Origin: an uncultured virus (IMG/VR IMGVR_UViG_3300045945_000056)
Taxonomy: Duplodnaviria > Heunggongvirae > Uroviricota > Caudoviricetes
IMG/VR virus record: IMGVR_UViG_3300045945_000056
Direction: 5' to 3' (one strand)
DNA length: 64,000 nucleotides
Numbering within the stretch: position 1 is the stretch's first letter; each line of letters opens with the position of its first letter. The notes below the pieces were generated by a model that made no database searches, had not been told where the DNA came from, and worked only from the letters and a program-made list of their open reading frames with translations. Shown one piece after another: positions 1 through 25,319 of this stretch. The translations under genes and the position numbers were made by a program.

Positions 1-107
1 TCCCTTCGCGCAGGGAAAAGGCGCCACCCTTCGGAAGAAAAACGACCGCGCTGGTAGTACAGAGAGCAGCTGGTGGCAGGCAGCGCACGTTGTGCTTCGG
101 TTGTGCG

Positions 108-329
108 TTACGGTTGACTTTTAACCAAAGCATTTTTATCCTCCATTATCTGCCGGTAACTCACCCGCTTTGATAGCACCGCTATTATAAACAAGTCACC
201 AAACTCATCTAGCATGACGACTGTGTCGTCTACGAGTGCACCAAAGAAGCGTTTCATTAGCCCGTACTCTAGATGATCCTTCAGCTTACAATACTGTTCA
301 TCAGTTACCTCAAAGGTTATGCGTCGCAT
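108..329 (-). CDS. Small putative DNA-binding protein (ribbon-helix-helix-like), genome A
   Basis: ATG 329 preceded by AAGGAG. N-terminal RRITFEVTDEQY resembles an RHH beta-strand plus helix. Paralogue at 44554-44805. Confidence 0.5.
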   Translation of the reverse strand: MRRITFEVTDEQYCKLKDHLEYGLMKRFFGALVDDTVVMLDEFGDLFIIAVLSKRVSYRQIMEDKNALVKSQP

Positions 330-381
330 AGTAGCCGCGCTCCTTAAAGGAGGAAGCCGCAGCCTCCTCCTCAAAGCTAAC

Positions 382-918
382 TTACTGACCTCTTACCCAC
401 CGAGTAACCTCATTCGAGTCACCATATTTAGGATCACTTCTTACTCCTAATATCGCCCAGCCTTCCTTACCGACCCAATCATTAGTATCATTTGCTGCTG
501 TCTTGTCGATCTCAAATGCTTCGCAGAATCCACTAAGAAACTGTTTCAGCATGAACACTCTCTTGTCATTCATACTCGCCTTAGGGAAGTGGCATTGCCA
601 GTACACTTCCTTCACGTTAGGTTCATCAGCTACATCCAACCGTATCTGTAGCATCTCATCACCATTACGATCTGGCTTGATGCTAACGTCAAGTATCCTC
701 AGTTTCGCCTCAGTGCCGGCGGGCAGTATCTTCAGTTCTGGCAGATCGTCTAGTCCCATGTCTGAGAAATCAATAATAGGCATGACTTTTCCTTCAGAAA
801 AGTGGTTCGGTTTAATTACTCTGGTTTCTTCGGCAGTTTTCTCCATAAGCAATGGAGGCTTACTTGAATCCCAACGAAAATCATCGTCTGTGGGTTTAGC
901 ACTTCTCTTCCGTGGCAT
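382..918 (-). CDS. DUF669-like putative ssDNA-binding protein
   Basis: LPAGTEAKLRILDV, WVGKEG and YG..NEV pattern. Follows the Sak4-like ATPase. Paralogue at 44864-45364. Confidence 0.6.
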   Translation of the reverse strand: MPRKRSAKPTDDDFRWDSSKPPLLMEKTAEETRVIKPNHFSEGKVMPIIDFSDMGLDDLPELKILPAGTEAKLRILDVSIKPDRNGDEMLQIRLDVADEPNVKEVYWQCHFPKASMNDKRVFMLKQFLSGFCEAFEIDKTAANDTNDWVGKEGWAILGVRSDPKYGDSNEVTRWVRGQ

Positions 919-1360
919 TACTCTTATTCCTTGTTAACATTTCCTTTCGACACTTTCGGCACTTGCGTTGTACTCCATTTCGACCGCACCATTTAGAGTA
1001 TATTATATTCTCCTCTGTAAATTCGTGACCATTTTTGCAGTGTGTTTTGGCGCTGTTATAGTTCTCCTTTCTAATAGATGCACGTGATTGGTTATCTGCT
1101 CCATTTACCTGCTGTAAATGATCTGGATTAACGCAGTGTTTAACTGAGCAGATATGATCTACCTGATTATTAGCAGTTATTTCTCCAACGTAGTGTTCAT
1201 AGGATAGTCTATGAGCATAATGCAACCTGGATTTCCCAGAACTATTATCCCACAGTAATGGATATCCAGTTCCATTTGTTGCTCCCGTCCACTCCCAGCA
1301 CTCAGTAAGTTTATTGATACTCACTTTTTTCAGAAAGAGAAATAATCGCTTCTCAGTCAT
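896..1360 (-). CDS. HNH homing endonuclease
   Basis: CWEWTG, AHRLSY, DHIC...CVNPDHL and a C-terminal THCKNGH zinc finger. Absent at the syntenic site in B. Confidence 0.9.
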   Translation of the reverse strand: MTEKRLFLFLKKVSINKLTECWEWTGATNGTGYPLLWDNSSGKSRLHYAHRLSYEHYVGEITANNQVDHICSVKHCVNPDHLQQVNGADNQSRASIRKENYNSAKTHCKNGHEFTEENIIYSKWCGRNGVQRKCRKCRKEMLTRNKSNATEEKC

Positions 1361-1403
1361 AGGAAGTCCTGGTCAGTTGGTTTTGCACTACGTTTGCGAG
1401 GCA

Positions 1404-2201
1404 TTACTTACTCCCGAACAGCGACGGCTTATCTTTGATGTCCATACCACATTTCTTGAGTATTGCCTTAATATCTGGCGGCTCGTAAGTATCGAGCTTG
1501 CCAGCAGACAGGCGACTACTTGCCATGTACCTACCAGTTCGTTGCGTGATTATTCTATACTCAATTCCTTTCGAGGATTGTGTTGTATCTGCTACCCACA
1601 CCTCAGTAAACTGCAGCGGTATGATGACCGTGCCTTTACCAGTGGTGGAATATCGGTACTCTATACTGCCTAACACATCATCCTTCATTGGCTCTAGGTG
1701 ACCTGTAACGATAACATCACAGGGAAGTGCCAGTACCTTCTTTAGCCAGTTATGAATAAGTACCTTTTGTGGTACGTAATCTTTTGTGAAGAGTGGTGCA
1801 GTGCCGGCGCGTCCATCCTTCGCTAGGATGAGGTTCATTATGTTCTCGGCCCATACCGTACTTGAATCAAGTACATATGTACCGAAGTTATCGAAGTACT
1901 TTGCTCGCACCTTCTCTTCAAAGTCTCGAGTCCACTGCTCGAACATAGTAGGTTTGAGTGGATCTTCTTTCTCGTACTTAGTTTCAGCGAGAATATCACC
2001 TTTCTTCTTAGCTTCGCGTAAGCACAGTGTGCCGCCAGGATCGAAAGAATCAATATACACTGGCAGACGTGCAGTACGTGCTAGGTACGTCTTACCTACT
2101 CCTTTCTCGCCCAGCAATAACAAATTGTAGCGATCTTGATTCTCGTCTTCAAGGTACAACTTTCTTAAGCGTTCGTTCTCGAGTCGTGCATCAAGAGGCA
2201 T
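1404..2201 (-). CDS. Sak4-like AAA ATPase (recombination / ssDNA annealing)
   Basis: Walker A GEKGVGKT, Walker B VLDS, VIVTGH motif. Context nuclease-ATPase-SSB. Confidence 0.8.
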   Translation of the reverse strand: MPLDARLENERLRKLYLEDENQDRYNLLLLGEKGVGKTYLARTARLPVYIDSFDPGGTLCLREAKKKGDILAETKYEKEDPLKPTMFEQWTRDFEEKVRAKYFDNFGTYVLDSSTVWAENIMNLILAKDGRAGTAPLFTKDYVPQKVLIHNWLKKVLALPCDVIVTGHLEPMKDDVLGSIEYRYSTTGKGTVIIPLQFTEVWVADTTQSSKGIEYRIITQRTGRYMASSRLSAGKLDTYEPPDIKAILKKCGMDIKDKPSLFGSK

Positions 2202-2205
2202 TTAA

Positions 2206-2367
2206 TCACCCTCCAATCTCAGCTTCGTTGAAGCCGGCCTTAATACGCTTCTCGTAACAGCTCGGACACTCTCTAGAAATCTCACCAGTAATATCACTGC
2301 ACCAATCTCGCTCGCATTGCCAATCGTTACCACAATCAGCGCAGAAATGAGCGTGTAATTTAGGCAT
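2206..2367 (-). CDS. Small Cys-rich protein (53 aa, not in ORF track)
   Basis: MPKLHAHFCADCG...CPSCY. Fills the gap between neighbouring genes; two CxxC motifs. Confidence 0.55.
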   Translation of the reverse strand: MPKLHAHFCADCGNDWQCERDWCSDITGEISRECPSCYEKRIKAGFNEAEIGG

Positions 2368-3340
2368 TAGTTGTTTGCTCCTTTGTTAAGTCAACAAATG
2401 TTTTAGCGCCACTATCTACTCGTGGGTCCCACACCTCGTGTACGAAGCCTATTGGAGGCCGCTCGCAGCGTTGGAGTGGATTCGACCAGCTCATGCAGAA
2501 GTCGAAGTATGGACACTTTCTATTGTAGTCAAAGCATGCCTTCTCATTCATTGGGAAGGATTTCATTACCTGCGAATTGGAGTCATCAGCAGTAAGTAGA
2601 TATTCCATGTCGTACTTGAGTGCGTCATACCAACTAGCTTGACTGACGAGCCATGCCTGCATCTGACTTAAATTCTTCTCAACAATAGCCTCATCGAACT
2701 CAGATGGTCTAGCTTTGTAAAAGAAGGAACATCTTACCCTAATACCCCCTACTGAATTATCCTCGCCGAATAAACAGTATAGTACATGTAGGTACGTGAG
2801 CATCTGCGTACTGAGTAGCCACTGTTCTTGCCAGTTGCTCATTCGACGCTGCGAAGTTTTGTGGTCAAGACAAATTACTTTATTATCTCTTCTCCTCTGC
2901 AATAGTGCATCAAGCTTGAAGAACATTGGGGAGTCTGGCGCTATCAGTACTGTGCCACCTATTTCTGTGGCTAGTACTAGATAGTCTTGAGCATCCGTGC
3001 GGAATCGCTGTGCATATTCAACGAGAGTCTTGCGAGCATTCTGTGGATCCTTCGGAGCGAAGAGTCCATCAGATTCACTATCTAACTTAAGCCGGTAGGA
3101 TTGATAGAACAACTCGCATGCCTCTTCAACAGCTTCTTTAGAGTACTGCTTGTTCAGTAAGTGTTCAACTGCCAGATGCCAACATGAGCCGAAGTGTAAA
3201 TGGTTATTTACGTAATCTTCACGCCATTGTAGTACCTGTTCGTAGAAGTAACGACGCGGGCATGACATATACACTGACAACTTGGAGGGATCTATTACAC
3301 TCCATGTATCCTGTTCAGGAATTAAGTCCAACAATTTCAC
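2360..3340 (-). CDS. Cas4-like PD-(D/E)XK exonuclease
   Basis: SCPRRY, KLDALL...DHKT, Q..Y and C-terminal C..C..C cluster. Paralogue at 46174-47151. Confidence 0.85.
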   Translation of the reverse strand: MKLLDLIPEQDTWSVIDPSKLSVYMSCPRRYFYEQVLQWREDYVNNHLHFGSCWHLAVEHLLNKQYSKEAVEEACELFYQSYRLKLDSESDGLFAPKDPQNARKTLVEYAQRFRTDAQDYLVLATEIGGTVLIAPDSPMFFKLDALLQRRRDNKVICLDHKTSQRRMSNWQEQWLLSTQMLTYLHVLYCLFGEDNSVGGIRVRCSFFYKARPSEFDEAIVEKNLSQMQAWLVSQASWYDALKYDMEYLLTADDSNSQVMKSFPMNEKACFDYNRKCPYFDFCMSWSNPLQRCERPPIGFVHEVWDPRVDSGAKTFVDLTKEQTTNA

Positions 3341-3659
3341 TTTCTTTTTCCTCTCTAAGGATTACAGTTCGTTTAATATACTTTGACGATGCCGCGTCGA
3401 ATAACAGCAGGTTTAATCTACCGTGCTTCAACACGAACAGTGAGCACGCTAGTGAACACATCACTGATAGGCCAGTGATTACGATGTAGTCTTCTGAATC
3501 GCTCTCCTCAATAAAAGGTTCAAAGGTACGGATCATGTTCGATACTGCGGCGCGGCTGAATGGTTCATTGCTCATGAATACTAGCTCGCCATACCTCGCT
3601 GCAGCTTCCCAGTTATGATAGCCCTTAGCAGGAATGAATACTTTATGTTTCTCACTCAC
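3315..3659 (-). CDS. Hypothetical protein
   Basis: ORF with AGGAG RBS, coupled to the nuclease gene. Confidence 0.65.
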   Translation of the reverse strand: MSEKHKVFIPAKGYHNWEAAARYGELVFMSNEPFSRAAVSNMIRTFEPFIEESDSEDYIVITGLSVMCSLACSLFVLKHGRLNLLLFDAASSKYIKRTVILREEKESEIVGLNS

Positions 3660-3709
3660 TTAGACTCCTAAAGGAGCCAGTGTTTGCTGGCTCCCTTTGT
3701 TAATGTTAG

Positions 3710-4240
3710 TTAGCGATTACGCCGACGGCCTTCCGCTGCCTGTTCTGCGGGTGTAGGTTCCGGAGCTGATTCTCCTCCGTTAACTCCAGCAGTGACAGCT
3801 GCGATCTCTTCCTCAGTAGGCTCAGATGAACCATTCTCGGCAGCAACAGGAGCTGCCTGACCACGTTTTGCGAAACGCTCCTGGATCAGGCGGTAGATTT
3901 CTTCCTGTCGCTCAGGAGTCCAGTCATCGAAGTTCTCAGCGATCACCTTGGCTGCATCAACTGTTTTAGTTGAGGCACGAGTGCTAAGCGATACGCCTGG
4001 CTTCCAATTATCCATCTCCATTTGGATACGTTCTGCAGTGAAGCCAGCAGAAAGCATCTTACGAGCCGCAGCCTGCGCGTTAATAGTAAGTGCACGCTTA
4101 AATAGCTCGTGCACATTCTGCTCATTTTGATCCTGGCGATCAAACATCTGAATAGCTTCAGTAATATTCTCACTGAAATTGTAAGAGAACTTTACTTCGG
4201 GGCGGCCTGCGGTAGCTACAGAAACTTCTTCACGAATCAT
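3710..4240 (-). CDS. Hypothetical protein with acidic C-terminal tail
   Basis: Has its own sigma70-type promoter. Paralogue at 47643-48176 (shared AQAAAR/AQAAGR..L.AG..KP). Confidence 0.75.
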   Translation of the reverse strand: MIREEVSVATAGRPEVKFSYNFSENITEAIQMFDRQDQNEQNVHELFKRALTINAQAAARKMLSAGFTAERIQMEMDNWKPGVSLSTRASTKTVDAAKVIAENFDDWTPERQEEIYRLIQERFAKRGQAAPVAAENGSSEPTEEEIAAVTAGVNGGESAPEPTPAEQAAEGRRRNR

Positions 4241-4307
4241 GGTACAATCTCCACTTGTGGAATAAAGTTGGTTTCACGAAGCAACACGCTTCGTTGACTC
4301 TGTTGTA

Positions 4308-4336
4308 ATTGTAACACGGAATTTGTAAGCTGTCAA
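4308..4336 (-). promoter_or_regulatory. Sigma70-type promoter
   Basis: TTGACA-17-TACAAT on the minus strand. Equivalent promoter in B at 48283-48311. Confidence 0.8.
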
Positions 4337-4352
4337 CCATTATTTTGCATAC

Positions 4353-4613
4353 TCAGAAATTTTTAGTCTCTAGGTACTCCTTATACAATGCAGCTCGTGT
4401 AACTAACGCATCACAACCAGCTGCGGCCTCTAAGTGGGATAAGTCCTGGTACTCAACCATTACTAGCGAACCATTCTGAAAGTAAGCCTCCTTTCCATAA
4501 GTACGCAGTGCACGTATGGCATAACAACGTGCGCATAACAGCATATTGTCAAGTACGAATACTGGATTAGTGAAGCAATCATGCTTGCTCAATCGTCTAA
4601 TCCTTTCCAGCAT
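4353..4613 (-). CDS. Hypothetical protein
   Basis: ORF overlapping the upstream gene; start codon uncertain. Confidence 0.45.
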   Translation of the reverse strand: MLERIRRLSKHDCFTNPVFVLDNMLLCARCYAIRALRTYGKEAYFQNGSLVMVEYQDLSHLEAAAGCDALVTRAALYKEYLETKNF

Positions 4614-4794
4614 ACTTTGCGAGTAATGGACAGTATACTGTTTGGTCCTCGTCATGCACAAAGTAACTCACGTCATGCGACGTAATTAAGTAAACTGGCT
4701 GACTGCAATGTGGGCACGTAAAGGAATCGCCAGGCGATTCTTGCAGCTCGAATGCCAGCACTGATCGGCCATCAGCATTCAATGCACGTATCAT
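4597..4794 (-). CDS. Zinc-ribbon protein (CoiA N-terminal-like)
   Basis: MIRAL...FTCPHC..PV...YFVH...C pattern. Confidence 0.5.
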   Translation of the reverse strand: MIRALNADGRSVLAFELQESPGDSFTCPHCSQPVYLITSHDVSYFVHDEDQTVYCPLLAKYAGKD

Positions 4795-5191
4795 AATTAC
4801 TCCTTGAAATAGGTTGTACAATAGTCATGCCAAAATTACCGTGTATTATCTCTTCCATCATTTCAGGAGAAAGAGAACGCCTCCATATTCTGTAGCGTTC
4901 TTTATTGGGAATCACCCAGTGCCCAATTTGATTCGTACATCTAAACAAGTAACATTCTAATAGGTATGCTTCCTCCCTTCCTACAGTAGGGTGTGTCCAT
5001 ACCACTTCCCCAAATCCGTATCTCATAATAGATCTAGCAGCACTCTCTTTCATCTCTTGATGCTCACGTACTCGACGAAGTAAGTTCGAAGTACTTCCTA
5101 TATAGTGCCCATCTTTGTACCTTAGTCTTATAACGTATACCCAACAGTACGATTGTAGTTTGCTAAGGTAATACGTACTTATAGAGCGCAT
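4772..5191 (-). CDS. GIY-YIG nuclease
   Basis: VYVI...YIGSTSNLLRRVREH...E motif. Confidence 0.8.
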   Translation of the reverse strand: MRSISTYYLSKLQSYCWVYVIRLRYKDGHYIGSTSNLLRRVREHQEMKESAARSIMRYGFGEVVWTHPTVGREEAYLLECYLFRCTNQIGHWVIPNKERYRIWRRSLSPEMMEEIIHGNFGMTIVQPISRSNYDTCIEC

Positions 5192-5215
5192 TTAATTACC
5201 CACTTCGGTTAAACT

Positions 5216-5620
5216 TTAACCATTGCGGCCAAGCTTAGCTGCAATCATTGCTAGTACTGACTCTAGTTGATCATCTGGCACTTGATCTGTGATGCTAACG
5301 CGCGGGTCAGCCGCCCTCGGCTGAGCGGACATTTTATGAGTTTTCTTGTTCGCCTTAGGTTGCAGTGGCTTCTTATACTCGCGGCCTTTCCAAGTAAGTG
5401 CACCAGCCTGCGAGAACTTCTCGTATGCATGTAGCATGATTGCATCATGCTTCTCTTTCAGGTGTGGAATGTGACATGCCTGGCAGCGACTCACATTGCA
5501 ACACTTTATTAGACTCGTAGAGTCCTCGCATCTATGACCACCTTTGGCCATGTAAGTGATAGCACGCCGCTCGTTCGCTGGCAGTTCGTTAAGCATCTTA
5601 ACTAACAACTCACGGTCCAT
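5216..5620 (-). CDS. Zn-binding hypothetical protein
   Basis: C..C..C..CH..HL.EKH. Paralogue at 50716-51108. Promoter TTGACT-17-TATAAT at 5650-5678. Confidence 0.7.
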   Translation of the reverse strand: MDRELLVKMLNELPANERRAITYMAKGGHRCEDSTSLIKCCNVSRCQACHIPHLKEKHDAIMLHAYEKFSQAGALTWKGREYKKPLQPKANKKTHKMSAQPRAADPRVSITDQVPDDQLESVLAMIAAKLGRNG

Positions 5621-5696
5621 AAGAAACTCCTTGCTTAGATTATGGTACTATTATAACATATTTCCACAGCAAAGTCAAGTCATCTTGTTATTTTGG

Positions 5697-6077
5697 CTAG
5701 ATTCCTTCCAGTACCTCAGTGAGTGGTGCGTCATCAGCATACTCGTACATTGCCATTTGATTGCAGATGCAGTGTACGTAGATTGTGAAACTGCATCCTA
5801 CATGCTCATTACCATAGGCATCTTTGCGCTTAGCAAAGGTTTCACCTTGCACTTCACAGGTAAATTCATCACGGCAATGATCTTCGTGTTCATTGATGAA
5901 GTCAGATACATCTTGCTCAAATTCTAACTCGAACTCAGTGAGGCTGTCGGTGCACGCTGAACAGAATAGATTGAATTGAACAGTACCTTCAACTTCAGTT
6001 GCACTGCAAAAGTCAATATCTGAGTCTGACCATTCACCGTCGATCTCGAGCTCTTCGTGGCAGAGTGGGCATAACAT
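5697..6077 (-). CDS. Acidic Cys-rich hypothetical protein
   Basis: ORF with CPLC and CSAC motifs; very acidic. Confidence 0.65.
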   Translation of the reverse strand: MLCPLCHEELEIDGEWSDSDIDFCSATEVEGTVQFNLFCSACTDSLTEFELEFEQDVSDFINEHEDHCRDEFTCEVQGETFAKRKDAYGNEHVGCSFTIYVHCICNQMAMYEYADDAPLTEVLEGI

Positions 6078-6394
6078 CGCTGATGTTCCTTTCAGTTAAT
6101 TGCCTGTTACTTCGGCGCGGGACGTGCGCTTGCCGCGCCCAGATAAGTTAAATGAAATTACTCTTACTGAACTCAGTTCAGTCATTAAACTCCAGTAAAC
6201 GCAGCTGCATAAAGCAGTCAGCACAGCGCTTTGCAGTGTGGGGCTCACTACAGAAGCACTCAAACGCTTCATGACAATCGGTGCACACATGCACGTGAGA
6301 GAAGGTGATCTGGTAATTCATACTCGCTCCTTAAGGCTAGAGATTGCTAGTTGCCTTGTGCAACATTCATACGTAATTGTACCACACGAAACGG

Positions 6395-6601
6395 TCAGTT
6401 GTCAAGTAAAGGGTATATTTTTTCTCCTGTAGATAAGTCAAAGATTGAAGCCTCAGGAAAGTGAGTGTTAAGCCAGCGTATGAGATTCTCTTTAGGTTGT
6501 CTGGAGAATACACGCAGTACTGGTGCAATACTCGTAATGTATCCGCTTGGATTAACCGTAACTAAGCAAGTGAAATTGTTAGTAGATATTTGTAGGTCCA
6601 T
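6395..6601 (-). CDS. Hypothetical protein
   Basis: AGGAG RBS directly after hairpin element H1. Confidence 0.6.
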   Translation of the reverse strand: MDLQISTNNFTCLVTVNPSGYITSIAPVLRVFSRQPKENLIRWLNTHFPEASIFDLSTGEKIYPLLDN

Positions 6602-6604
6602 TAA

Positions 6605-6850
6605 AGTATACTCCTATTTGCCTTCGGATGCTATTTCCCTAGCAGGGCTACTGATTATGCGCTACTGAGGTTGCTCCTTCTGTCAATGGAAAACTTGGAA
6701 AAACCACCCAAGTTTTCCAGTGACAGCGCAACCTCATCCGCTAAGAAGGTAATTCGCCCTGCCTGGGAAAATGCATCTGCGGCCTGGAAGTGTGGGTCAG
6801 AGACAGTAGGGTCGCGTTGCTCCAGGTTTGTTACGGTTACATTCTAACCA
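6605..6850 (-). repeat. Palindrome-linker-long hairpin element H1
   Basis: TGGTTAGAATGTAACCG, GCAACGCG, then an imperfect hairpin at 6627-6777 containing TTGACA..CATAAT. Confidence 0.8.
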
Positions 6851-6856
6851 CAGTGA

Positions 6857-7189
6857 TTAATCAGTTCTGTTAATAGAGGCCTCAGAGCTGAAGGCTGTTC
6901 CATATCTTGTACTAAGCTTAGCTAGGTTGCCTTCTGCAATGTCATCCAGAGTGATGCCAAGTGCTGTACAGCACTCTGCAATATACCAGAGAACATCGCC
7001 TAATTCAGACGCTAGATTGTCTAACGCCAGTTGATGGCCGTGATAGAGCCACTTCTTGATAATGTCAGCTACTTCACCCGCTTCACCATTGAGGCCTAAG
7101 GTTGCCATAGTAATATTGCCGCGATAATCTGGATACTTTGCAAACCGTGAAGTTTGGTGAGCTAGTTCTTGATAGGTATTTAGATCCAC
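6857..7189 (-). CDS. MazG-like nucleotide pyrophosphohydrolase
   Basis: LGLNGEAGEVADIIKK...ELGDVLWY...N.AKL..RY motif. Confidence 0.9.
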   Translation of the reverse strand: MDLNTYQELAHQTSRFAKYPDYRGNITMATLGLNGEAGEVADIIKKWLYHGHQLALDNLASELGDVLWYIAECCTALGITLDDIAEGNLAKLSTRYGTAFSSEASINRTD

Positions 7190-7205
7190 TTGTTTTGTAC
7201 TCCAA

Positions 7206-7454
7206 TGGTTAAAGTTTAACCAAAGCAGGTATTTGGTACGTGTATGACCGAAGGCAAAACTTGCCGCCTTGGGACTACAGATGCCCCGTTGGTGCTTAGG
7301 CGCCGTTTAGATTTTTTTCCGGAGGAGCCTGTTCCTGCTTTTAGCGAAGTGAGCAGGTTGTCAAGGCGCCTCCAGGCCGCTAGGCCCCTTGACAAGCAGC
7401 GCAACAAGCGTCATAATCTCCCAGGCTCCGTAGGAAAAATCTAAGCTAGCCTAA
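7206..7454 (+). repeat. Element H2
   Basis: TGGTTAAAGTTTAACCA plus hairpin at 7296-7454 with TTGACA-17-CATAAT (7389-7417). Confidence 0.8.
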
Positions 7455-7807
7455 TAACGTTTGTACATTGTGTAGTTTGCAAAGTCTTCTACACTTTTCT
7501 TTCTGTCATTCTGTGCTTGTGCAATTAATTGCTTAGTATCATTCACGCCTCCACTTTTTGGTAATATTGATTTACCATATCTACGATAGTACCATTTTAG
7601 GTATCTTTCCAATAGTAATGCATCCGCTCTTGACTCACACGGATAACATTCTACTATCGATTTAAAGGTGTATTTTCCAGTAATGTATGAGCCTCTCCAC
7701 CCACCTTTGTGCTCATGCACTCTCGTCATTAGGTTACGTGTGCTTCCTATATACAGCACTTCAATTTCTACTATATCTAGGACGTACGTCCAAAAGTAAC
7801 GTATCAT
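7451..7807 (-). CDS. GIY-YIG nuclease
   Basis: TYVL...YIGSTRNLMTRVHEH...LERYLK. Confidence 0.8.
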   Translation of the reverse strand: MIRYFWTYVLDIVEIEVLYIGSTRNLMTRVHEHKGGWRGSYITGKYTFKSIVECYPCESRADALLLERYLKWYYRRYGKSILPKSGGVNDTKQLIAQAQNDRKKSVEDFANYTMYKRY

Positions 7808-8258: not shown

Positions 8259-8704
8259 TTACTATCTCCTTGACCATTATTTTCCTTTAGCAATTTTTGT
8301 ATGTTGGGATACTTGAGAGCCTTTTCAGCTGCTTGCATCATTCTGGCATCGTCAGATGCCGTCCATTCAGGTTGTTTACCACGTTGTTTTGGGTATTTAT
8401 TAAATTCCTCCATTTCACCGAACGAATCTTGCTGTAAATTGCGTAGCAATTGTTTGGCTTTCCTTTCACCAGGATTAAGTGAGGCTCTGAACATATGCTG
8501 TAGTATTTCAGTTGCTTCGTGTGTTGATTCTATAGGCGGTACTCCTTGCTTATTTAGCCATTCGTCGAATACATCTACTATTATTCGTATCATCTCACTT
8601 AAACTTCTTAGATGTGTGCCAGATTCTTGTATATGCCTTGCGGCTCTGGCTAGTTTTGTGCGTTCTATTGTTGAGTATACTACTGCGTCTGATTCTTTTA
8701 GCAA
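8255..8704 (-). CDS. Hypothetical protein
   Basis: Paralogue at 51430-51897 (LA.AAR....L..MS..IR). Confidence 0.7.
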   Translation of the reverse strand: MLKESDAVVYSTIERTKLARAARHIQESGTHLRSLSEMIRIIVDVFDEWLNKQGVPPIESTHEATEILQHMFRASLNPGERKAKQLLRNLQQDSFGEMEEFNKYPKQRGKQPEWTASDDARMMQAAEKALKYPNIQKLLKENNGQGDSK

Positions 8705-8997
8705 TTTAATTCCTCCTCATCCCACCAGTAATGGAATAGCATTTCTGAACAGAACGCTTCTATTACACTTTCATCTATGTACTTACTAATTTGGTGACAG
8801 AAATGCTCTGTCCAAAATGCTGATTTTCTGTTGGGCGTTATTATTACGCCGCATAAATTACCCTTTACACCTGGTGCTAATTGTCCGTAACGTAAATGTT
8901 CTTTTATTCTCCTCTCTAAATTGTTAGTAGATCCGATGTATAGACGAGATGTTTGCTTGTATTTAGTTCTTATAAAGTATACGTATGCTTTGTTCAT
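8698..8997 (-). CDS. GIY-YIG nuclease
   Basis: VYFI...LYIGSTNNLERRIKEH. Confidence 0.8.
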   Translation of the reverse strand: MNKAYVYFIRTKYKQTSRLYIGSTNNLERRIKEHLRYGQLAPGVKGNLCGVIITPNRKSAFWTEHFCHQISKYIDESVIEAFCSEMLFHYWWDEEELNC

Positions 8998-9220: not shown

Positions 9221-9372
9221 ATTATATCAGAAATAAATTGGGTTGTCAAGTATACTCAAAATTTTAAGCCTAATCATCATGCTATGGTTAAAATACTACC
9301 AAAATATGCTATTTAGCATGTAACTTACGCTCAAATCCGTGACTTGACATTTCATTCAGAGTATGATATAAT
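9221..9372. promoter_or_regulatory. Divergent consensus sigma70 promoters
   Basis: Minus-strand TTGACA-17-TATAAT (9221-9249) and plus-strand TTGACA-17-TATAAT (9344-9372), both with an extended TG. Confidence 0.85.
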
Positions 9373-9430
9373 CTACATGATTCGAGTATCGTCTATGAGA
9401 TTGTATTACATTTGTATTACAAACTAAGGA

Positions 9431-9799
9431 GTGTGCTGTATGTTTTTAGATCGTCTATTAGCTAAAATTTCCCCCCAACGCCCCCGCGTGAGTAACGAAT
9501 ATAAGTATGTCTATGCATCCTGTGATCCGTCTAAGTGTTATTATTGTAGCCTACCAGCAAAAGCTATGGATCACGTGCTACCAGTCTCGCTAGCGCGTCT
9601 AATGCCTTATTTTGAGTTCTCTAGTGAACTCCTGCAACTAGTTCCCTGTTGCACACGCTGCAATTCCATAGCCGGCAATAAGTTCTTCGCGTCTATATCT
9701 GCCAAGCGAAAGTATATTCTCGAGCGTATCTGTGAACTGCGCGTGCGAGCTCAATATGCTGAGGTGCTGTCTAAGTTAGATAAGTTACTCTCTAATTGA
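9431..9799 (+). CDS. HNH endonuclease (CxxC-type)
   Basis: CYYC..DHVLP...CTRCN. Paralogue at 48521-48898. Confidence 0.85.
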   Translation: MCCMFLDRLLAKISPQRPRVSNEYKYVYASCDPSKCYYCSLPAKAMDHVLPVSLARLMPYFEFSSELLQLVPCCTRCNSIAGNKFFASISAKRKYILERICELRVRAQYAEVLSKLDKLLSN

Positions 9800-9804
9800 G
9801 CTGG

Positions 9805-9860
9805 TATTCATTGGCGGATATTCATTGGCGGATATTCATTGGCGGATATTCATTTATGGA
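9805..9860. repeat. 14-bp tandem repeat
   Basis: TATTCATTGGCGGA x3 plus a degenerate fourth copy. Confidence 0.9.
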
Positions 9861-9882
9861 TACTGCTTACGTGTGTAGGCGC

Positions 9883-9909
9883 AAAAAAAGGGCTGGTCTC
9901 AGCCAGCCC
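9883..9909 (-). terminator. Rho-independent terminator of the early operon
   Basis: GGGCTGG/CCAGCCC stem followed by T7 on the minus strand. Confidence 0.8.
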
Positions 9910-10044
9910 ATTATTCTAGTATCCTAGTCTATACTGTGCTATCATGCCTAGTAGGCAAATAGCAAAGAACATAATTATCAATACCCAGCTGTCATCCATG
10001 AGTGTTCCTTTGAGGCGAGTTCACATCCTCGCCCCGCGTGTGAG

Positions 10045-10323
10045 TTATCTACCGTGCTGATACCATGCGTCAGTCACGAAATTAGCCTCAAGATATGCCA
10101 CAATTGGCAACAGATGATTAGACTCAGCGAATATCTCCCTGCACTCTTCAAAGGACTTGCCTATAGCCAGCATAAGTCCTATAGAATTGTACCAGCCGTA
10201 TACCCAGTTGTCAGGATCAACTTCCTGTCCTAGGTATGCGCAGAGCTCTTCATCAATCAGTGTTAATTGAACTGGACCAGCTTCCAGTTCAGTTTTGCGA
10301 GTGAGAGTAAAACAGTTAGGCAT
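10045..10323 (-). CDS. Hypothetical early protein
   Basis: ORF with RBS, bounded by repeated hairpins. Confidence 0.7.
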   Translation of the reverse strand: MPNCFTLTRKTELEAGPVQLTLIDEELCAYLGQEVDPDNWVYGWYNSIGLMLAIGKSFEECREIFAESNHLLPIVAYLEANFVTDAWYQHGR

Positions 10324-15956: not shown

Positions 15957-15959
15957 CTA

Positions 15960-16198
15960 TGGTTAAAGTTTAACCGTAAGATTGGCGAGCAGCAACGCGC
16001 GAAGCCCTTATGGGACCGATGCTTCTCGCGCCCGATGCATTTTCCCGCAGGAGGCGAATTTCTCCCTTCACGAAAGGGCACGCAGTCACCCAAAGGGGCG
16101 GAACGAAGTGGAGCACGCGAAGCGTTGACTGCACTAGTGCCCTGTAGTGATATAATCTCTAGCCTCCTGCAGGGATAAATGCAACGAAGGTGCACAGT
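15960..16198 (+). repeat. Element H3
   Basis: TGGTTAAAGTTTAACCG, GCAACGCG and a hairpin at 16036-16183 with TTGACT-20-TATAAT. Confidence 0.8.
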
Positions 16199-16447
16199 AT
16201 GGCTGAACAAAACTTTCATGCAACACTTAGTGAATTTCACGCACTTATTGAGAGCGTAGCCTGGCGTGATATGCGTAGCGAAGTTGATACCTGGCTTCAG
16301 GAGATACGTAATAAACTAGAAGTTGAAGACGACATAGGTGAAATTAAACGCTTTCAGGGCATCGCTGAAGCATGTAGACACTTTATAAATCTACCTCAAA
16401 GCATTTGCGATGCAATCGAGGAGAATGTAAATGGCAGAGAATTTTGA
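16199..16447 (+). CDS. Small conserved head-module protein
   Basis: WRD...LE...I.R.QG pattern. Paralogue at 59584-59826. Confidence 0.75.
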   Translation: MAEQNFHATLSEFHALIESVAWRDMRSEVDTWLQEIRNKLEVEDDIGEIKRFQGIAEACRHFINLPQSICDAIEENVNGREF

Positions 16448-17147: not shown

Positions 17148-17149
17148 CT

Positions 17150-17393: not shown

Positions 17394-18686
17394 ATGGCTT
17401 TCATGGGAATGCGTGGTACTGGTGACTGGGCAACTGACGAGCGTCCAAAGAACTGGCGGCAAGGAATACTTTACCTTTACCCGAACGGAATGGCGCCACT
17501 TACGGGCTTATTGAGTAAGATGGGAGAAGAAGTAGTTACTGACCCTGAATTTGCGTGGTGGACAAAGAACCTCGCGACTCAAGGCGGAACTATCACTGAC
17601 ATTTATACTGACTCAGGAATGACAGCTGCACTCGCTGCCGGCGGTACTGCAGCTGGCGTCACACTCTACGTGAAGGTAGCTCAGGCGCTTGCCACTGAAT
17701 TTCGTGTCGGCCATCAGGTTCTATTGCGGGTATCTACCAACCTTAACGTAGACGTAAACGCTAAAGTAGTTGGCGTAACTCTCGCCGGTGCTGATTCTAA
17801 GATAGATGTTAAACTCTTAGAGGCTGACGATAATGGTGGAGCAACAAACCTGTCTACTGCAGATACCATTCTTATTATCGGTAACATTAACTCTGAAGGT
17901 GCGCCAATTCCTAATGCTGTTGCCTATGATCCTGTGAAGTGGTTCAACTACACTCAGATTTTCCGTACTCCTTTGGACATTACTCGTACCGCGCGTAAAA
18001 CTACGCTGCGTACCGAGGACGCGTACAAAGAAGCAAAACGTGAATCTCTCGAACTTCACTCTATTGAGATGGAGAAAGCATTCTTCTGGGGCATTCGCAC
18101 GGAGAACGTTGGCACTAACGGCAAGCCTGAACGCACTACTATGGGTGTCATTCAGGCAATCAAAACAGGTGCACCTAGCAACTCATTTACATACACCACC
18201 GATGCAAGTGTTCCGGCGAGTACTACTTGGCTTGAAGGTGGTGAAGAATGGCTAGATAGATCACTTGAAGTAATCTTCCGTTATGGCTCAAGTGATAAAA
18301 TGGCCTTTGCTGGTAGTGGTGCGTTGCTTGGCATTAATCGCATTGCAAAAGCAGCTGGTCAGATTAACCTCACACCCACGGCTACTTCATACGGTCTCAA
18401 GGTTACGCAATGGATTACACCATTTGGTACACTTAACCTAATGACGCACCCATTGTTCAGTTACGATGCAACTACGCGTAATCTACTGGTTATACTAGAG
18501 CCACAAATGCTCAAGTACCGCTACATTGATGATACTACATTCATGAGTATGGACACGACTAAAGTATCACCATCGCACGAGCGGCTCGACGGTACTAAAG
18601 AAGAGTGGCTAACTGAGTGCGGTCTTGAGTATCATCACCCAACGAAGTTTGGTTTGCTGAATGATGTAGGTAAAGATAAGCCGTAA
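17394..18686 (+). CDS. Major capsid protein (intron-less allele)
   Basis: 430 aa with NYTQIFR...E.EKAF.G...RTT.G motifs typical of podovirus capsid proteins. Confidence 0.88.
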   Translation: MAFMGMRGTGDWATDERPKNWRQGILYLYPNGMAPLTGLLSKMGEEVVTDPEFAWWTKNLATQGGTITDIYTDSGMTAALAAGGTAAGVTLYVKVAQALATEFRVGHQVLLRVSTNLNVDVNAKVVGVTLAGADSKIDVKLLEADDNGGATNLSTADTILIIGNINSEGAPIPNAVAYDPVKWFNYTQIFRTPLDITRTARKTTLRTEDAYKEAKRESLELHSIEMEKAFFWGIRTENVGTNGKPERTTMGVIQAIKTGAPSNSFTYTTDASVPASTTWLEGGEEWLDRSLEVIFRYGSSDKMAFAGSGALLGINRIAKAAGQINLTPTATSYGLKVTQWITPFGTLNLMTHPLFSYDATTRNLLVILEPQMLKYRYIDDTTFMSMDTTKVSPSHERLDGTKEEWLTECGLEYHHPTKFGLLNDVGKDKP

Positions 18687-18713
18687 TGGTTAAAATCTAA
18701 CCATAGGACCGTT

Positions 18714-19409
18714 ATGACTCTTCTAGAAATACGCACCAAATTTATTGAGCTGAGTGGCCGCTACGATTTGATCACGGATACCGAATCGTACCAGGACTCT
18801 GGTGCGGATTTCTTTATACTTAGCGGCCAGCGGTGGCTAGACCGGACATTCGAAGTACTTAAGTCCACCGCAAACTATTATGCTACCCTTGCCGCCGGTA
18901 ATTGGTACTTACTTATACCTGAGTGCAGAGTTATACGTGAGGTACGGGCAACTAACTTAAGTGGCGTAGTCGTGAAGCTCAAACCTCTCTCGCTTGAGCG
19001 TATGCATCGTACACAAGAGCCAGGTTGTCCGTACCTTTACGCGCCGTGTGCAATTCGCACTCAGCCTGAGATTGCGGGGCAATCCACGGTGCCGCCGAAT
19101 ACTATCGTTATGGAGGACAACTTTCCTTACAATGCTATAGTATTCAACACGGCCTTCAGTGAGCAGACGCAATTACAAGTTGTTGGTTACTTCTACCAGT
19201 CGCCGCTGGTAAATGACACTGACTACAACTTCTGGAGCACACAGCATCCCTGGGTGCTGGTGCTCGCGGCTATGCGTGCAATGGAAGTAGCTCAGCGTAA
19301 CCGTGATGGCGTGGCCGATTGGGAAACAGCTATACGTAGTGAAATGCTTGGACTAGAGTACGATTACGTCGAGCAATTATCACTTCCTATAAAGCAAATG
19401 GAGGGATAG
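18714..19409 (+). CDS. Putative head-tail adaptor
   Basis: MTLLEIR start, located after the capsid gene. Paralogue starts at 63502. Confidence 0.6.
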   Translation: MTLLEIRTKFIELSGRYDLITDTESYQDSGADFFILSGQRWLDRTFEVLKSTANYYATLAAGNWYLLIPECRVIREVRATNLSGVVVKLKPLSLERMHRTQEPGCPYLYAPCAIRTQPEIAGQSTVPPNTIVMEDNFPYNAIVFNTAFSEQTQLQVVGYFYQSPLVNDTDYNFWSTQHPWVLVLAAMRAMEVAQRNRDGVADWETAIRSEMLGLEYDYVEQLSLPIKQMEG

Positions 19410-19419
19410 AATGTGGCTA

Positions 19420-19650
19420 TGGTTAAAGTTTGACCACAGCTGCGCCCAACGAGGCGCCCTTGTGGCTACGTCTCTGCTGCTTCCAGCCGCCCCAGGCATT
19501 TCTCCGTAGGAGGCATCTTGAGACAAATCGCGACTTGCGAGCTGTCAAGGGGTCCCCAGCGAAGCGTCCCTTGACAGTGAAGCAATTAAGCGATTAGGCT
19601 CTCTTGCCTCCGCAGGATAAATGACTGCTGGCGTTTACATGAGGAATAAT
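19420..19650 (+). repeat. Element H4
   Basis: TGGTTAAAGTTTGACCA and a hairpin at ~19491-19632 with CTGTCAAGGG/CCCTTGACAG. Confidence 0.8.
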
Positions 19651-19654
19651 TATA

Positions 19655-19831
19655 ATGCCTTACAAAATACGTAAAAAGGATGGCGATAAGTATGAGGTTA
19701 GCTCACCAAGTGGTGTTCGTGCTAAGGGTACATCTAAGAAAAAGGCCAAGGCTCAGGTGCGTTTACTGAATGCTATAGAGCATGACGAAGACTTCGTTGC
19801 GCGCCGCAAAAAGCGTAATAAGATGAGCTGA
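19655..19831 (+). CDS. Small basic protein (58 aa, not in ORF track)
   Basis: MPYKIRKKDG...TSKKKAKAQVRLLNAIEH with GAGG RBS. Confidence 0.7.
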   Translation: MPYKIRKKDGDKYEVSSPSGVRAKGTSKKKAKAQVRLLNAIEHDEDFVARRKKRNKMS

Positions 19832-19832
19832 T

Positions 19833-20168
19833 ATGGAAATCTTTACAAGAGACGACTTCAATAAATGGGCAGAACGTAATCACGATTATGAATTTGCTCA
19901 TGAAATGGCGTGTTTATTAGTCTACAAGTCGGTAGAAGAGATGTTGCGAATTTTACCAGGCGTCATTCGCAACTTAGTGAAGAGTACTATTATGCTACGT
20001 GACTTAACCGATCGCTTCTATGAGCAGAATAAGGATCTCGTCGCGCACAAGGATGTAGTTGCACGGGTTATTGAGGGCCTCGAATTGAAAGCTCCTGGAA
20101 TTGACCTAGAGCAATTGCTTAAAGAAGCCGCGCCGCTCGCACGCAAGCAGATAAGGATGCGTAAATAA
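19833..20168 (+). CDS. Protein resembling the scaffold C-terminal domain
   Basis: FYEQNKDL versus scaffold FYDANPDL, with a similar downstream pattern. Confidence 0.6.
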   Translation: MEIFTRDDFNKWAERNHDYEFAHEMACLLVYKSVEEMLRILPGVIRNLVKSTIMLRDLTDRFYEQNKDLVAHKDVVARVIEGLELKAPGIDLEQLLKEAAPLARKQIRMRK

Positions 20169-23125: not shown

Positions 23126-23126
23126 T

Positions 23127-23546
23127 ATGGCGACACTTCCATCTAATAACTGTAAGTATTTATTGATGACTGCGGGGATCGACTTTGGTGCAGACGTGTT
23201 CAAGATAATACTCATGAAAGCCGGTTATGTTTTCAACCGTGCAACACATAACACGTATGCTGATGTGACTGCAGACGAACTAACAACAGGTAGTGGTTAT
23301 ACAGCTGGTGGTCAAACGCTTGCAGGCGGCACGGTGACTCGCGACGATGGTGCTAACGTAACAGTCGCTACTTGGAATAATCCTAGCTGGCTTGCAACCG
23401 GCGGCGATATTACTGCTCAAGGTGCTATAATCTTGGACGACACTTTAGCAAGCAAGCCAACGGTAGGATTTATTGACTTCGGTGCCGCACTCGTTACATA
23501 TGACAGCGGTACGTTTACTATAGCTAATCCACTGGTAGAACTATGA
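23127..23546 (+). CDS. Virion-associated protein
   Basis: FKIILM...EL.TGSGYTAGG..L motif common in tail modules. Confidence 0.65.
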   Translation: MATLPSNNCKYLLMTAGIDFGADVFKIILMKAGYVFNRATHNTYADVTADELTTGSGYTAGGQTLAGGTVTRDDGANVTVATWNNPSWLATGGDITAQGAIILDDTLASKPTVGFIDFGAALVTYDSGTFTIANPLVEL

Positions 23547-24706
23547 GCGTAGCTGATCCAGCACTAAATGTTACTTTCGAATGCTTGTATCAAGATGGCG
23601 CTATAAGGCTCGAGCCACGCCTTGACGGACACTCGCTTTCTGCAACAATTCCAGTAGAACTGACACGTATTGTTCTATCACTGCGTATTGGCAGCTATAT
23701 ACCTCAAGGCGCTGTCGCACGCGGCAATGTAATCAGCCTTAATTTAGTGTTGCGCGCCGAAGCATTAATTGAATCTTCTCGTAGAAACTGGGTTGGTTGG
23801 AGTAAGATAGGTGAAGCGAGCTTTGTTCTAGATACTGTTAACGATGCCGGATACAGGCCAATGAATTGGCGTGGTGATGTACTTGCCATTAAACAACTAG
23901 GCCGCGGCGCCGTGATTTATGGCAGTAATGGCATTACACTTATGTCGCCGGTCTCAAGTCCAGCACCAACATTCTCTTTTCGTGATCTAGCATATACAGG
24001 ATTACTATCTAAAGACGCCGTGTGTGGAACAGAATTCATTCATTACTTTATTGATGCAAAGTACCAATTATGGAAACTAACGCCTGAGGGTGCAACGTAC
24101 CTGGACTTCAGCGAGCATCTTAAAGTACTTATTAATCCAGTGCTGTTCTATGACGAGTATATAAAGCACGTACTTATCAGCGACAGTGAGCACGGGTTCA
24201 CACTGGCAGAGGACCGTATGGGTGACGGTTACTCTAAGCTGAGCGGGTACGTGTACGAGAGTGGTTCACTACTCGTTAGCTCCCCGCAGCTAATTGAGTA
24301 TGAGCCACTCTCACTTACCACGGATATTCTTGACTTCGGTCGGCGTTCGCAAAAAACATTAACTAACATTCAGGTAGGCACTGATGTTCCAGAGTGGCTA
24401 GAAATAGCCTATGATTACCGCTATGATCTAAAGCAGCCATTCAGATCTACTCGTTGGGTACGTCTTAACATTGAAGGAATTGCTTATCTTGCATGTGCAG
24501 GCATTGACTTTCGCATCAAAGTGCGTGCTCGTAGAGTTGCTAGACTCGACGTCGACTACATTAATATCAGTTTCAAGACTACGGATCAGCGCTTTAGCAG
24601 GAGTGCCTACGTAGGCAATCTTGCTATCAGCGCTTTTGCTGGGAGCGTAAGTCATGATTCTACAACTTCAACCAGACCAGGTGAGCGAGTACTGGGCCAA
24701 GATTAA
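23543..24706 (+). CDS. Tail nozzle/stabilisation protein, C-terminal part (putative)
   Basis: NWVGWSKIG, IKQLG..VIYG.NGI and TDILDFG...K motifs. Confidence 0.55.
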   Translation: MSVADPALNVTFECLYQDGAIRLEPRLDGHSLSATIPVELTRIVLSLRIGSYIPQGAVARGNVISLNLVLRAEALIESSRRNWVGWSKIGEASFVLDTVNDAGYRPMNWRGDVLAIKQLGRGAVIYGSNGITLMSPVSSPAPTFSFRDLAYTGLLSKDAVCGTEFIHYFIDAKYQLWKLTPEGATYLDFSEHLKVLINPVLFYDEYIKHVLISDSEHGFTLAEDRMGDGYSKLSGYVYESGSLLVSSPQLIEYEPLSLTTDILDFGRRSQKTLTNIQVGTDVPEWLEIAYDYRYDLKQPFRSTRWVRLNIEGIAYLACAGIDFRIKVRARRVARLDVDYINISFKTTDQRFSRSAYVGNLAISAFAGSVSHDSTTSTRPGERVLGQD

Positions 24707-25094
24707 GCCGGCGGCAATCGCTGCCATGGAATTAGATCCACTCGACCCGAATACGAGTGAGTACAGTAATAACTTGTTTATATCGCTGCTTAATAGCACG
24801 CATCAAGCCTGGCTCATTATGGATGACGAGCGGGAACTGTACGCAATGGGAATCACGTGCATAGTAGAGGACAACCTAACTGACGTGCGATCACTGCATG
24901 TGGACGCATTCTACAGCTTCCAGACAATGACGGATGAGCTGGCGCGTGATGCAACAGCTAGCATGCGAGAGTATGCATGTACTGTACGGTGCGAGCGGAT
25001 ACATGCACTGACAGGCAATCCGCGTGCAGCACGCTTGCTAGAGCTGGTTGGATTCAAAGCTGGCAAGATGGAGTATTTGCTTTCTTGTGGTTAA
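24654..25094 (+). CDS. GNAT-fold-like virion assembly protein
   Basis: Position before the ejection genes; C-terminal RLLELVGF. Confidence 0.5.
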   Translation: MILQLQPDQVSEYWAKIKPAAIAAMELDPLDPNTSEYSNNLFISLLNSTHQAWLIMDDERELYAMGITCIVEDNLTDVRSLHVDAFYSFQTMTDELARDATASMREYACTVRCERIHALTGNPRAARLLELVGFKAGKMEYLLSCG

Positions 25095-25319
25095 GAATTA
25101 ACCAAAGCACCGATGTGAGCAACGCGAACCCGCTTGCCACAACCGTGCTACAGGCCGCCCCAAGATTTTTCCCGGCAGGGGCGCCTTTGTCTTTTGCAAG
25201 CGAGCAGGTTGTCAAGGAAGCCTCCGCCCGAAGGGCATCCTTGACAAGCAGCGCAGTGCAGCATCATAATCCCTAGCCCCTGCAGGGACAAATCTTGCGA
25301 GGACTGATAGGAGTAAATT
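25088..25319 (+). repeat. Element H5
   Basis: TGGTTAAGAATTAACCA, GCAACGCG, hairpin at 25161-25297 with TTGACA-18-CATAAT, then AGGAG-ATG. Confidence 0.8.

Follow-up and report, generated by a model that had tools for sequence, protein, structure and literature searches.

The window analyzed here, a 64,000-nucleotide stretch of an uncultured tailed virus (IMG/VR record IMGVR_UViG_3300045945_000056; Caudoviricetes), carries a repeated intergenic cassette of about 240 bases in which a sigma70-type promoter lies in the 3' arm of a long hairpin, or rod, of about 150 nt (140–160 nt). The element, which recurs in a group of uncultured soil phages, can be described as a putative host promoter set in a DNA fold-back, standing beside a 21-bp dyad that recurs throughout the clade and probably binds a protein. 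The account favored here, held tentatively, is that of a modular promoter cassette that, by folding back, would also serve the host RNA polymerase when the DNA is single-stranded or extruded, as at the Frpo and sso signals. The analysis supports the original prediction of a repeated, structured, intergenic phage device with an embedded sigma70-type promoter. Calling that device undescribed was too strong, as cassettes combining a promoter with a stem-loop (promoter-early stem-loops, PeSLs) and hairpin promoters acting on single-stranded DNA (ssDNA; Frpo/ssi) are already known.

All six predicted copies are present in the window. The core GGTTAANNNTTAACC occurs there eight times with at most one mismatch, against 0.13 occurrences expected, and none of 100 shuffled sequences reached eight; the core of the second copy, at 6834–6850, has two mismatches. 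Three of the five complete copies were folded as DNA, and none of 200 shuffles folded as well (z = −5.7, −6.7, and −9.3). The first copy (c1, 1–127, minus strand) consists of a dyad at 111–127, a linker, and the start of the rod 5' arm at 1–48, where the covariance model used below scores a minus-strand hit with its 3' end cut off. It had been described as truncated, which is true only in that the window edge cuts it: the copy is complete in the near-identical virus record G001 (locus L016:128–360), which holds three more long copies. The family is accordingly larger than the six members first counted, with additional dyad-only sites in the window and additional long copies in G001.

The five complete copies share one layout. 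In c2 (6590–6850, minus strand), the dyad (6834–6850) directly follows the MazG stop codon, the rod spans 6623–6780, and a TTGACA −35 box (6681–6686) is separated by 21 nt from a CATAAT −10 box (6654–6659), followed by a Shine-Dalgarno (SD) sequence and an ATG at 6599–6601. The inverted copy c3 (7206–7449, plus strand) has its dyad (7206–7222) 17 nt upstream of the MazG start on the opposite strand, a rod at 7305–7449, and a −35 box (7389–7394) placed 17 nt from CATAAT (7412–7417), with no plus-strand gene after it; as a duplex, this promoter scores 11/12. The dyad of c4 (15960–16201, plus strand) lies 3 nt past the portal stop, at 15960–15976; its rod (16031–16188) contains TTGACT (16125–16130), a 20-nt spacer, and TATAAT preceded by TGn (16151–16156), ahead of an ATG at 16199. 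For c5 (19420–19657, plus strand), the dyad is at 19420–19436, the rod at 19490–19631, the −35 box at 19571–19576, and the ATG at 19655; its −10 box, TAGGCT (19595–19600), follows an 18-nt spacer and is partly paired. Finally, c6 (25088–25322, plus strand) has a dyad (25088–25104) overlapping the upstream stop, a rod at 25158–25301, a −35 box at 25241–25246, and, after 18 nt, CATAAT at 25265–25270, with an ATG at 25320. Both the predicted spacings (21, 17, 20, 18, and 18 nt) and the predicted SD and start codon after four of the five complete copies (c2, c4, c5, and c6, not c3) were borne out.

Homologues of the rod exist in related virus records. Searches with a profile of the 3' arm and with a covariance model each recovered 20 distinct copies: ten variants from genome A, the first of two phage genomes that the window appears to join (nine loci, with c3 differing between the window and G001, and with four of the ten copies outside the window), six from G004, two from G005, one from G003, and one from the fragment L020. 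Neither search found rods of this type in G002, G006, or the second genome of the window, genome B. An exact 16-mer of the promoter arm occurs in 44 IMG/VR stretches; seven of these carry a rod, all from contigs of the same clade, and the other 37 are not rod copies. The claim that the outer stems differ in sequence yet stay paired holds on all 20 copies, with compensating changes: in the covariance-model alignment 86.4% of cells are paired, compared with 76.1% in shuffles (0/500 as high) and 41–58% in slid controls, and 15 of 21 pairs have changes on both sides, compared with 7.3 in shuffles (0/500). Since they come from a model-fitted alignment of related copies, these values lend support rather than proof.

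Across the 20 copies the −35 box reads TTGACA or TTGACT in 14, TTTACA in five, and CTAGCA in one, and the spacer measures 17–21 nt. All 20 −10 hexamers, including those of the seven copies without a following gene, have A at position 2 (A(−11)) and T at position 6 (T(−7)); the choice of hexamer favored these two letters, but the hexamers nevertheless share one alignment column. TGn precedes all five copies of TATAAT. Pairing follows promoter coordinates closely: the −35 box is paired in a fraction of 0.9–1.0, the spacer partly, the −10 hexamer in only 0.0–0.45, and the next three to five bases in 0.0–0.15, after which pairing returns to 0.9–1.0 from about +1. In nine or ten copies, those with −10 boxes of the TATAAT, CATAAT, or GACAAT type, the −10 region opens as a symmetric bubble of about 11 by 12 nt with a pyrimidine-rich 5' side, while the non-bubble copies keep TAnnnT with a GC-rich, partly paired middle. 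Extra bases in the spacer have no partners in the 5' arm (r = 0.85, slope 1.1, n = 20), and the distance between the two boxes in the folded form therefore stays near 17.

Of the 21 extracted copies, 15 bear the motif X-CGNAG-X' on the promoter strand, at one fixed place at the tip of the rod just 5' of the −35 arm, and none bears it on the other strand; in total, 35 sense and three antisense hits compare with about 4.3 expected per strand. Its variants include GCGAAGC, GCGTAGC, GCGGAGC, CCGAAGG, ACGTAGT, and similar heptamers. A 2026 review describes GCGNAGC as a DNA mini-hairpin of extraordinary stability whose RNA counterparts are far weaker, places it in phage G4-type origins, in ssiA of RSF1010, and in the N4 virion-polymerase promoters, and notes its poor binding by SSB (PMC13037366). 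The rods lack an RNA-type signature. G.U pairs are rare (about 5%) and show no strand bias (43/860 sense and 39/829 antisense over the 20 copies), a bias seen on ten copies (24 versus 12) having gone on 20, and isolated differences between the arms comprise eight of the sense-wobble type, eight of the antisense-wobble type, and 86 transversions. The summed fold energy is about equal on either strand (−1381 versus −1312 kcal/mol), and the covariance model is strand-specific for c6 (121 bits sense versus 31 antisense). Rods were also considered as intrinsic terminators and rejected, as no U-tract follows them.

Cassettes have been gained, lost, and swapped between relatives. The c5 cassette is wholly absent from G002 and G003, where the two flanking genes abut, and the c6 locus of G003 has the dyad only. 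At non-homologous loci, c6 in G001 and a replication-operon copy in G004 share 36 nt of identical 3' (promoter) arm. The c3 rod is replaced in G001 by a different rod within flanks that are 99–100% identical; the exchange adjoins an indel of a GIY-YIG gene (7451–7807) that is absent from G001 and whose border coincides with the swapped rod. The cassette family is probably wider than the covariance model captures. G002, which has 12 dyads and none of these rods, holds another multi-hairpin module with GCGAAGC after the dyad and linker at the c4 and c6 loci (loci L039–L041; upstream of G002 47228 and 38042), and G003 shares part of it at the c4 locus.

Placement relative to genes divides the rods into two groups. 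An SD sequence and start codon follow 71–90 nt after the −35 box in 13 of 20, and seven have none. Four or five of these seven are inverted, so that their dyad abuts a start codon (c3/MazG, c9, G003_42319, and G004_19035), and another lies at the convergent junction after a giant gene.

The 17-bp palindrome first recognized in the cassette is part of the 21-bp dyad, with the consensus TnTGGTTA(A/G)AnT(T/C)TAACCAnA. There are 61 such sites in G001–G005, or 11–14 per genome, compared with 0–2 for a reversed-pattern control, and they occupy the same syntenic gene borders: before the terminase gene, after the portal gene, after the capsid gene, and both before and after the giant gene. Most stand alone, 8–25 nt 5' of a start codon or directly after a stop. 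Examples in the window are a dyad at 5204–5224 (a short form), which overlaps the stop of the minus-strand reading frame 5216–5620 and is followed, 15 nt on, by the start of a GIY-YIG gene (4772–5191, minus strand); one at 12442–12462, 17 nt before the large-terminase start (12478); and one at 18685–18705, immediately past the stop of the major-capsid gene (18686), with the next start (18714) 10 nt further on. A degenerate, palindrome-only site occurs at 9286. Palindrome and rod had been described as one element, but they are separable (61 against 19 in G001–G005), and the palindrome behaves as a site on duplex DNA rather than as a stem. Mirror positions vary without compensation (0/16 is C:G in one site, where about three would be expected under independence, and 6/10 is G:C in one; n = 61), for which reason the dyad reads as two conserved half-sites, one helical turn apart, for a dimeric protein on duplex DNA, a putative operator. 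Its flanks have T and A at −2/+18 in 56 of 61 sites and unconserved, mostly non-complementary bases at −1/+17. For the same lack of compensation, a hairpin of RNA or ssDNA and an N4-type promoter were rejected as explanations of the palindrome, and CtrA, parS, and other named boxes were dropped, their spacing being wrong.

A dyad lies 142–199 nt upstream of the −35 box in 19 of 20 rods, with a semi-conserved linker between the two. Some longer linkers contain a second −10-like box (TGCTATAAT or TATGAT) about 25–30 nt after the dyad, as at L046:9290–9340 (G004 29290–29340) and, similarly, near G004 8094 and G005 4282. The TTAACC of the dyad would then fall near a −35 position, and this arrangement hints at overlap between the dyad and a separate promoter belonging to it.

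In the fold-back account favored here, the cassette would have two states. As a duplex it would be a normal promoter reading into the next gene. The second state would arise when the promoter strand becomes single-stranded, whether at a replication fork, in another intermediate, or by extrusion under supercoiling. The C-GNA-G mini-hairpin at the tip would then start the folding, and the fold-back would rebuild the −35 box and spacer as duplex and offer the −10 box and discriminator unpaired, as in an open complex, on which the host RNA polymerase could start without melting the DNA. Given the polarity of the template, the enzyme would run along the 5' arm towards the dyad, and its product may be a primer or antisense RNA at direct copies and the sense mRNA of the dyad-adjacent gene at inverted copies. 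A more specific form of this account, in which a tailed double-stranded DNA (dsDNA) phage uses the host polymerase on folded promoter copies for replication-coupled initiation, as a phage counterpart of Frpo/sso, is somewhat doubtful. In this form, exposed strands would receive primers, or transcription would surge only during DNA copying; the cassettes would pass between related phages as modules that dock next to a clade-specific operator.

In favor of the fold-back account are the paired −35 box with its open −10 region, the constancy of A(−11) and T(−7), the tip motif on one strand, the missing RNA-type signature, the folded spacing near 17, the strand-specific covariance model, and the likeness to known ssDNA promoters. 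Several observations weigh against it. Its main weakness is directional: a polymerase on the folded form would run towards the dyad and away from the gene after the rod, so the ribosome-binding site (RBS) and start codon after 13 of 20 rods are explained by the duplex promoter only. The same template-polarity argument has been made elsewhere (PMC8708921). Frpo-type promoters are reported to be inactive as duplex (PMC12672017), whereas the promoters of the window look complete as duplex, so that a fold-back would not be needed to create them. About eight of the 20 copies have a weak, partly paired −10 box (TAGGCT, TACCCT, and similar). No single-stranded stage is known for the dsDNA phage, which has a primase/helicase-like gene of its own, and a simple lagging-strand-template rule fails for the five or six copies that are inverted relative to local genes. 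Close relatives lack the rod at the same loci, and G002 yields no hit for this rod type. The conservation of the boxes is partly a matter of ascertainment, the search models having been built from genome A's own copies.

Known systems resemble the rods in different respects. The M13 minus-strand origin and the ssoA of rolling-circle plasmids are ssDNA signals for host RNA polymerase. Closest in kind, together with PeSL cassettes, are the Frpo/ssi elements of F and IncI1 plasmids. These intergenic stem-loops restore the −35 and −10 boxes of a promoter read by the host polymerase; they too are large and imperfect, have the −35 box as duplex and the −10 region imperfectly paired, take their orientation from the strand bearing the hexamers, and occur in several copies per replicon (PMC12672017). 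The rods share the long stem-loop that rebuilds the host boxes but differ from what is described there in belonging to a dsDNA tailed phage and in carrying promoters that appear complete as duplex (TTGACA, 17–18 nt, and TATAAT or CATAAT). A gene beyond the 5' arm, with the hairpin strand as template, is a further Frpo feature; it fits the four or five inverted copies and not the 13 with a gene after the 3' arm, where the adjacent gene is on the wrong side for expression in hairpin mode. A literature search for ssDNA promoters together with phage returned papers on plasmids, conjugation, or DNA nanotechnology, judged by titles and abstract openings, which is no proof of absence from print.

The PeSL cassettes of the T4-type phages RB49 and phi1 run from a stop codon through a sigma70 consensus promoter with a stem-loop to an SD sequence and start codon, occur in tens of copies or fewer per genome, and mark points of indel, replacement, and shuffling; their stems are small and GC-rich, lie within or beside the promoter, and act as terminators, and an AT-rich region lies upstream (Arbiol et al., 2010; PMC2839356). 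Thirteen of the 20 rods follow this order of upstream stop, consensus promoter, and SD/start, and c3, c5, and c6 lie at such points of change. In contrast to PeSLs, however, the rods are 140–160 nt long, enclose the whole promoter with an open −10 bubble, end in a GNA tip, lack a U-tract, have GC-rich sequence upstream of their −35 box, are coupled to a separate 21-bp dyad and linker, and occur also among late (structural) genes. Because at least one defining feature of each system fails, the rods are a variant, not a member, of Frpo/ssi or PeSLs.

The promoters of the N4 virion RNA polymerase have a one-strand C-GNA-G mini-hairpin (GAA, GTA, or GGA) at the start region, and there the hairpin with its 5–7 bp stem and 3-nt GNA loop is itself the promoter for a phage enzyme (PMC13037366). 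In the rods, the motif only caps a structure with 70-bp arms and host −35 and −10 boxes, and no homologue of the N4-like polymerase was detected in PHROGs and Pfam scans of open reading frames (ORFs) or in PDB searches with the two giant proteins. Correia or CREE-type miniature inverted-repeat transposable elements (MITEs) of Neisseria carry promoters and hairpins cleaved by RNase III. They resemble the rods as intergenic, imperfect palindromes of about 150 bp that contain a promoter, lie in either orientation, and are variably present; the rods differ in being on a phage and tied to a dyad, with no target duplication and no terminal repeats beyond the arms seen. Comparison by eye of filled and empty c5 and c6 loci gave no sign of the MITE hallmark of terminal inverted repeats with a target-site duplication.

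The original prediction had left four options for the function of the element. Of these, a hairpin or cruciform promoter acting at the DNA level and a mobile or modular element are favored by the data; a 6S-like RNA and, to a lesser degree, an RNase III-type stem are disfavored. Promoters of T7 are paired with RNase III sites, and an RNA-level cassette resembling PeSLs or the T7 R sites would have its 5' arm form a hairpin in read-through mRNA that stops, processes, or stabilizes RNA, while the duplex promoter serves the next gene and the hairpin uncouples neighboring genes; taken as a whole, this reading is rather unlikely. It accounts for placement, since elements start right after a stop and end at an SD and start codon in 13 of 20, as in the PeSL layout, and for indifference to orientation, since the folding energy of the rods is much alike for the two strands and inverted copies would remain functional as RNA; copies also mark indel and swap points as PeSLs do. 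Contigs from RNA libraries bridge c5 and the dyads at 12445 and 18688, but such contigs cannot show transcription, strand, or ends. The RNA reading leaves unexplained a tip that is a DNA-stable GNA triloop rather than an RNA GNRA or UNCG loop and that follows the promoter strand rather than the transcript strand, the missing G.U signal (about 5% of pairs, without sense bias), the uncompensated spacer insertions, and an open bubble of 11–12 nt, which exceeds what avoiding an antisense promoter would need and would weaken an RNase III substrate; the missing U-tract argues against it as well. For a 6S-like decoy, in which read-through RNA rods would mimic an open promoter and soak up host sigma70 polymerase, the resemblance is one of length (140–160 nt) and central bubble. 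That idea is extremely improbable: conservation falls on the hexamers of the DNA promoter itself, both the kind of loop and the scarcity of G.U pairs point to DNA, and a search of Rfam over window 1–40000 at E≤1 returned three irrelevant weak hits and no 6S or other relevant family.

A selfish or passively shuffled palindromic element, MITE-like or associated with homing, might instead carry its outward promoter by chance, its rod reflecting copying or upkeep, such as template switching from arm to arm, and no regulatory need; this explanation is decidedly unlikely. The dynamics are what it explains: copy numbers of 10, 6, 2, 1, and 0 among related genomes, whole-cassette presence or absence at c5 and a dyad alone at c6 in G003, 36 nt of arm identity at non-homologous loci in G001 (c6) and G004, occurrence in both orientations, and a c3 rod exchanged within 99–100% identical flanks beside a GIY-YIG indel. 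Mostly Watson-Crick arms with many transversion mismatches would likewise fit homogenization at the DNA level. Against it, there is no transposase, and neither a target-site duplication nor a terminal repeat taking in the always-linked asymmetric linker was seen by eye. Nor does it explain why A(−11) and T(−7) are kept in 20/20, copies without a downstream gene among them, along with the −35 box, bubble, and tip motif; this retention of polymerase-contact positions argues for selection on polymerase binding and not on foldability alone. A supercoil-sensitive cruciform switch working with a dyad-binding protein, in which extrusion hides or redirects the promoter for temporal control and brings the dyad within about 70 bp of the next gene, is very unlikely. 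The dyad 142–199 nt upstream of the −35 box with its semi-conserved linker (19 of 20 rods), the nearly equal stability of the arms on both strands, and the behavior of the dyad as a duplex protein site are consistent with such a switch, whereas a tip motif on one strand only, bubbles of 11–12 nt and bulges that raise the cost of extrusion, the many dyads without rods (61 against 19), and the lack of a candidate for the dyad-binding protein are not.

Window positions 1–7321 and 7826–46408 align to G001 (64,399 bp) at 98.9% and 99.97% identity, and 46409–64000 has only a distant match there (62–69%). A 46,817-bp IMG/VR contig with a major capsid protein 100% identical to that of the window looks like genome A alone, and both capsid types (100% and 77%) occur on a 91-kb IMG/VR contig that has the same A/B join as G001. 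The final 256 bp of G001 repeat window 28466–28721, a tail-fiber stretch in which the switch from A to B falls, and from 29.7 kb onward a TTAAAATTTTAA-based repeat (22 hits against 1.2 expected) replaces the dyad of genome A. From these four lines, we infer that the window joins two related tailed-phage genomes, A up to about 28.7 kb and B from there to 64 kb, and that genome A would comprise window 1 to about 28.7 kb and G001 46059–64399, or about 46.8 kb in all. An earlier placement of its end at a GC shift near 38 kb is corrected by the record matching and the motif change. The join may reflect either a chimera created in assembly, at a repeat common to both genomes, or a true recombinant.

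Genome A encodes Sak4-like, exonuclease, and MazG proteins, HNH and GIY-YIG nucleases, large terminase, portal, and major capsid, and, in the part found only in G001, a ParB-methylase, a family-A DNA polymerase fused to a UDG-like domain, a DUF3987 protein, and a protein of 1845 aa. The nuclease genes of the left arm, all on the minus strand, are HNH at 896–1360 and GIY-YIG at 4772–5191, 7451–7807, and 8698–8997. No RNA polymerase or sigma family was matched among 51 ORFs searched against PHROGs or 59 searched against Pfam, and a megablast of window 1–25000 against a phage collection gave no match. Two giant proteins, of 1845 aa (L016:6485–12022, minus strand) and 1728 aa (window 33074–38260, plus strand), end the structural modules. 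The idea that they are virion RNA polymerases found no support: both have no PDB sequence hits and no Pfam match, their homologues are 11 clade-confined proteins, none of them named, and weak language-model leads (Atlas, <0.9) point to LPD domains of polyvalent proteins. Parts of the phage region are contained in 14 runs of soil metatranscriptome libraries; the four examined, as contigs only and at low depth, show presence and some bridging (c5 at 18882–19867), and one loose contig end at 7298 carries the G001 version of c3.

Ordinary early promoters (12/12 consensus, with TG) cluster at 9.2–11.8 kb, and none has a rod. This early control region (9221–11810) has the lowest GC content in genome A and may be its origin. 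At least six consensus sigma70 promoters with a TG extension face both directions (9344+, 9249−, 11694−, 11782+, 11425−, and 5678−), a 14-bp tandem repeat in four to five iteron-like copies spans 9800–9869, and a bidirectional terminator-like hairpin lies at 9890–9909. In genome B, the intergenic repeat has the form CCAGTG-TTAAAATTTTAA-CACTGG, approximately, between 29741 and 63479, often just 5' of an RBS (for example, 29732–29761, 38281–38310, 50519–50555, and 57402–57430). Its core, TTAAA-N-TTTAA, is similar to that of the genome A dyad, and the two may be read by the same regulator family with shifted specificity. Other structured modules follow the repeat in genome B. Genome B also has long rod hairpins at 32884–33046, 48330–48530, and 50540–50720, one of them directly upstream of the 1728-aa gene and that at 50.5 kb with GCGAAGC and CCGAAGG near its tip; they contain no genome A promoter arm, and the covariance model gives no hit there. 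Either an artefact of assembly or a highly unusual homopolymer tract accounts for an unbroken run of 66 T at 52058–52123.

If the folded form of these cassettes is used, the range of ssDNA promoters, which takes in conjugative plasmids and filamentous phages, would widen to include lytic dsDNA phages, and replication would be tied to transcription or priming by a simple physical means that requires neither a phage polymerase nor a phage sigma factor. Should the rod instead be an RNA or recombination module, the family would still provide 20 natural variants of one promoter in a scaffold resembling an open complex, together with a conserved putative operator at about 12 sites per genome and a view of how phages gain, lose, and exchange regulatory cassettes.

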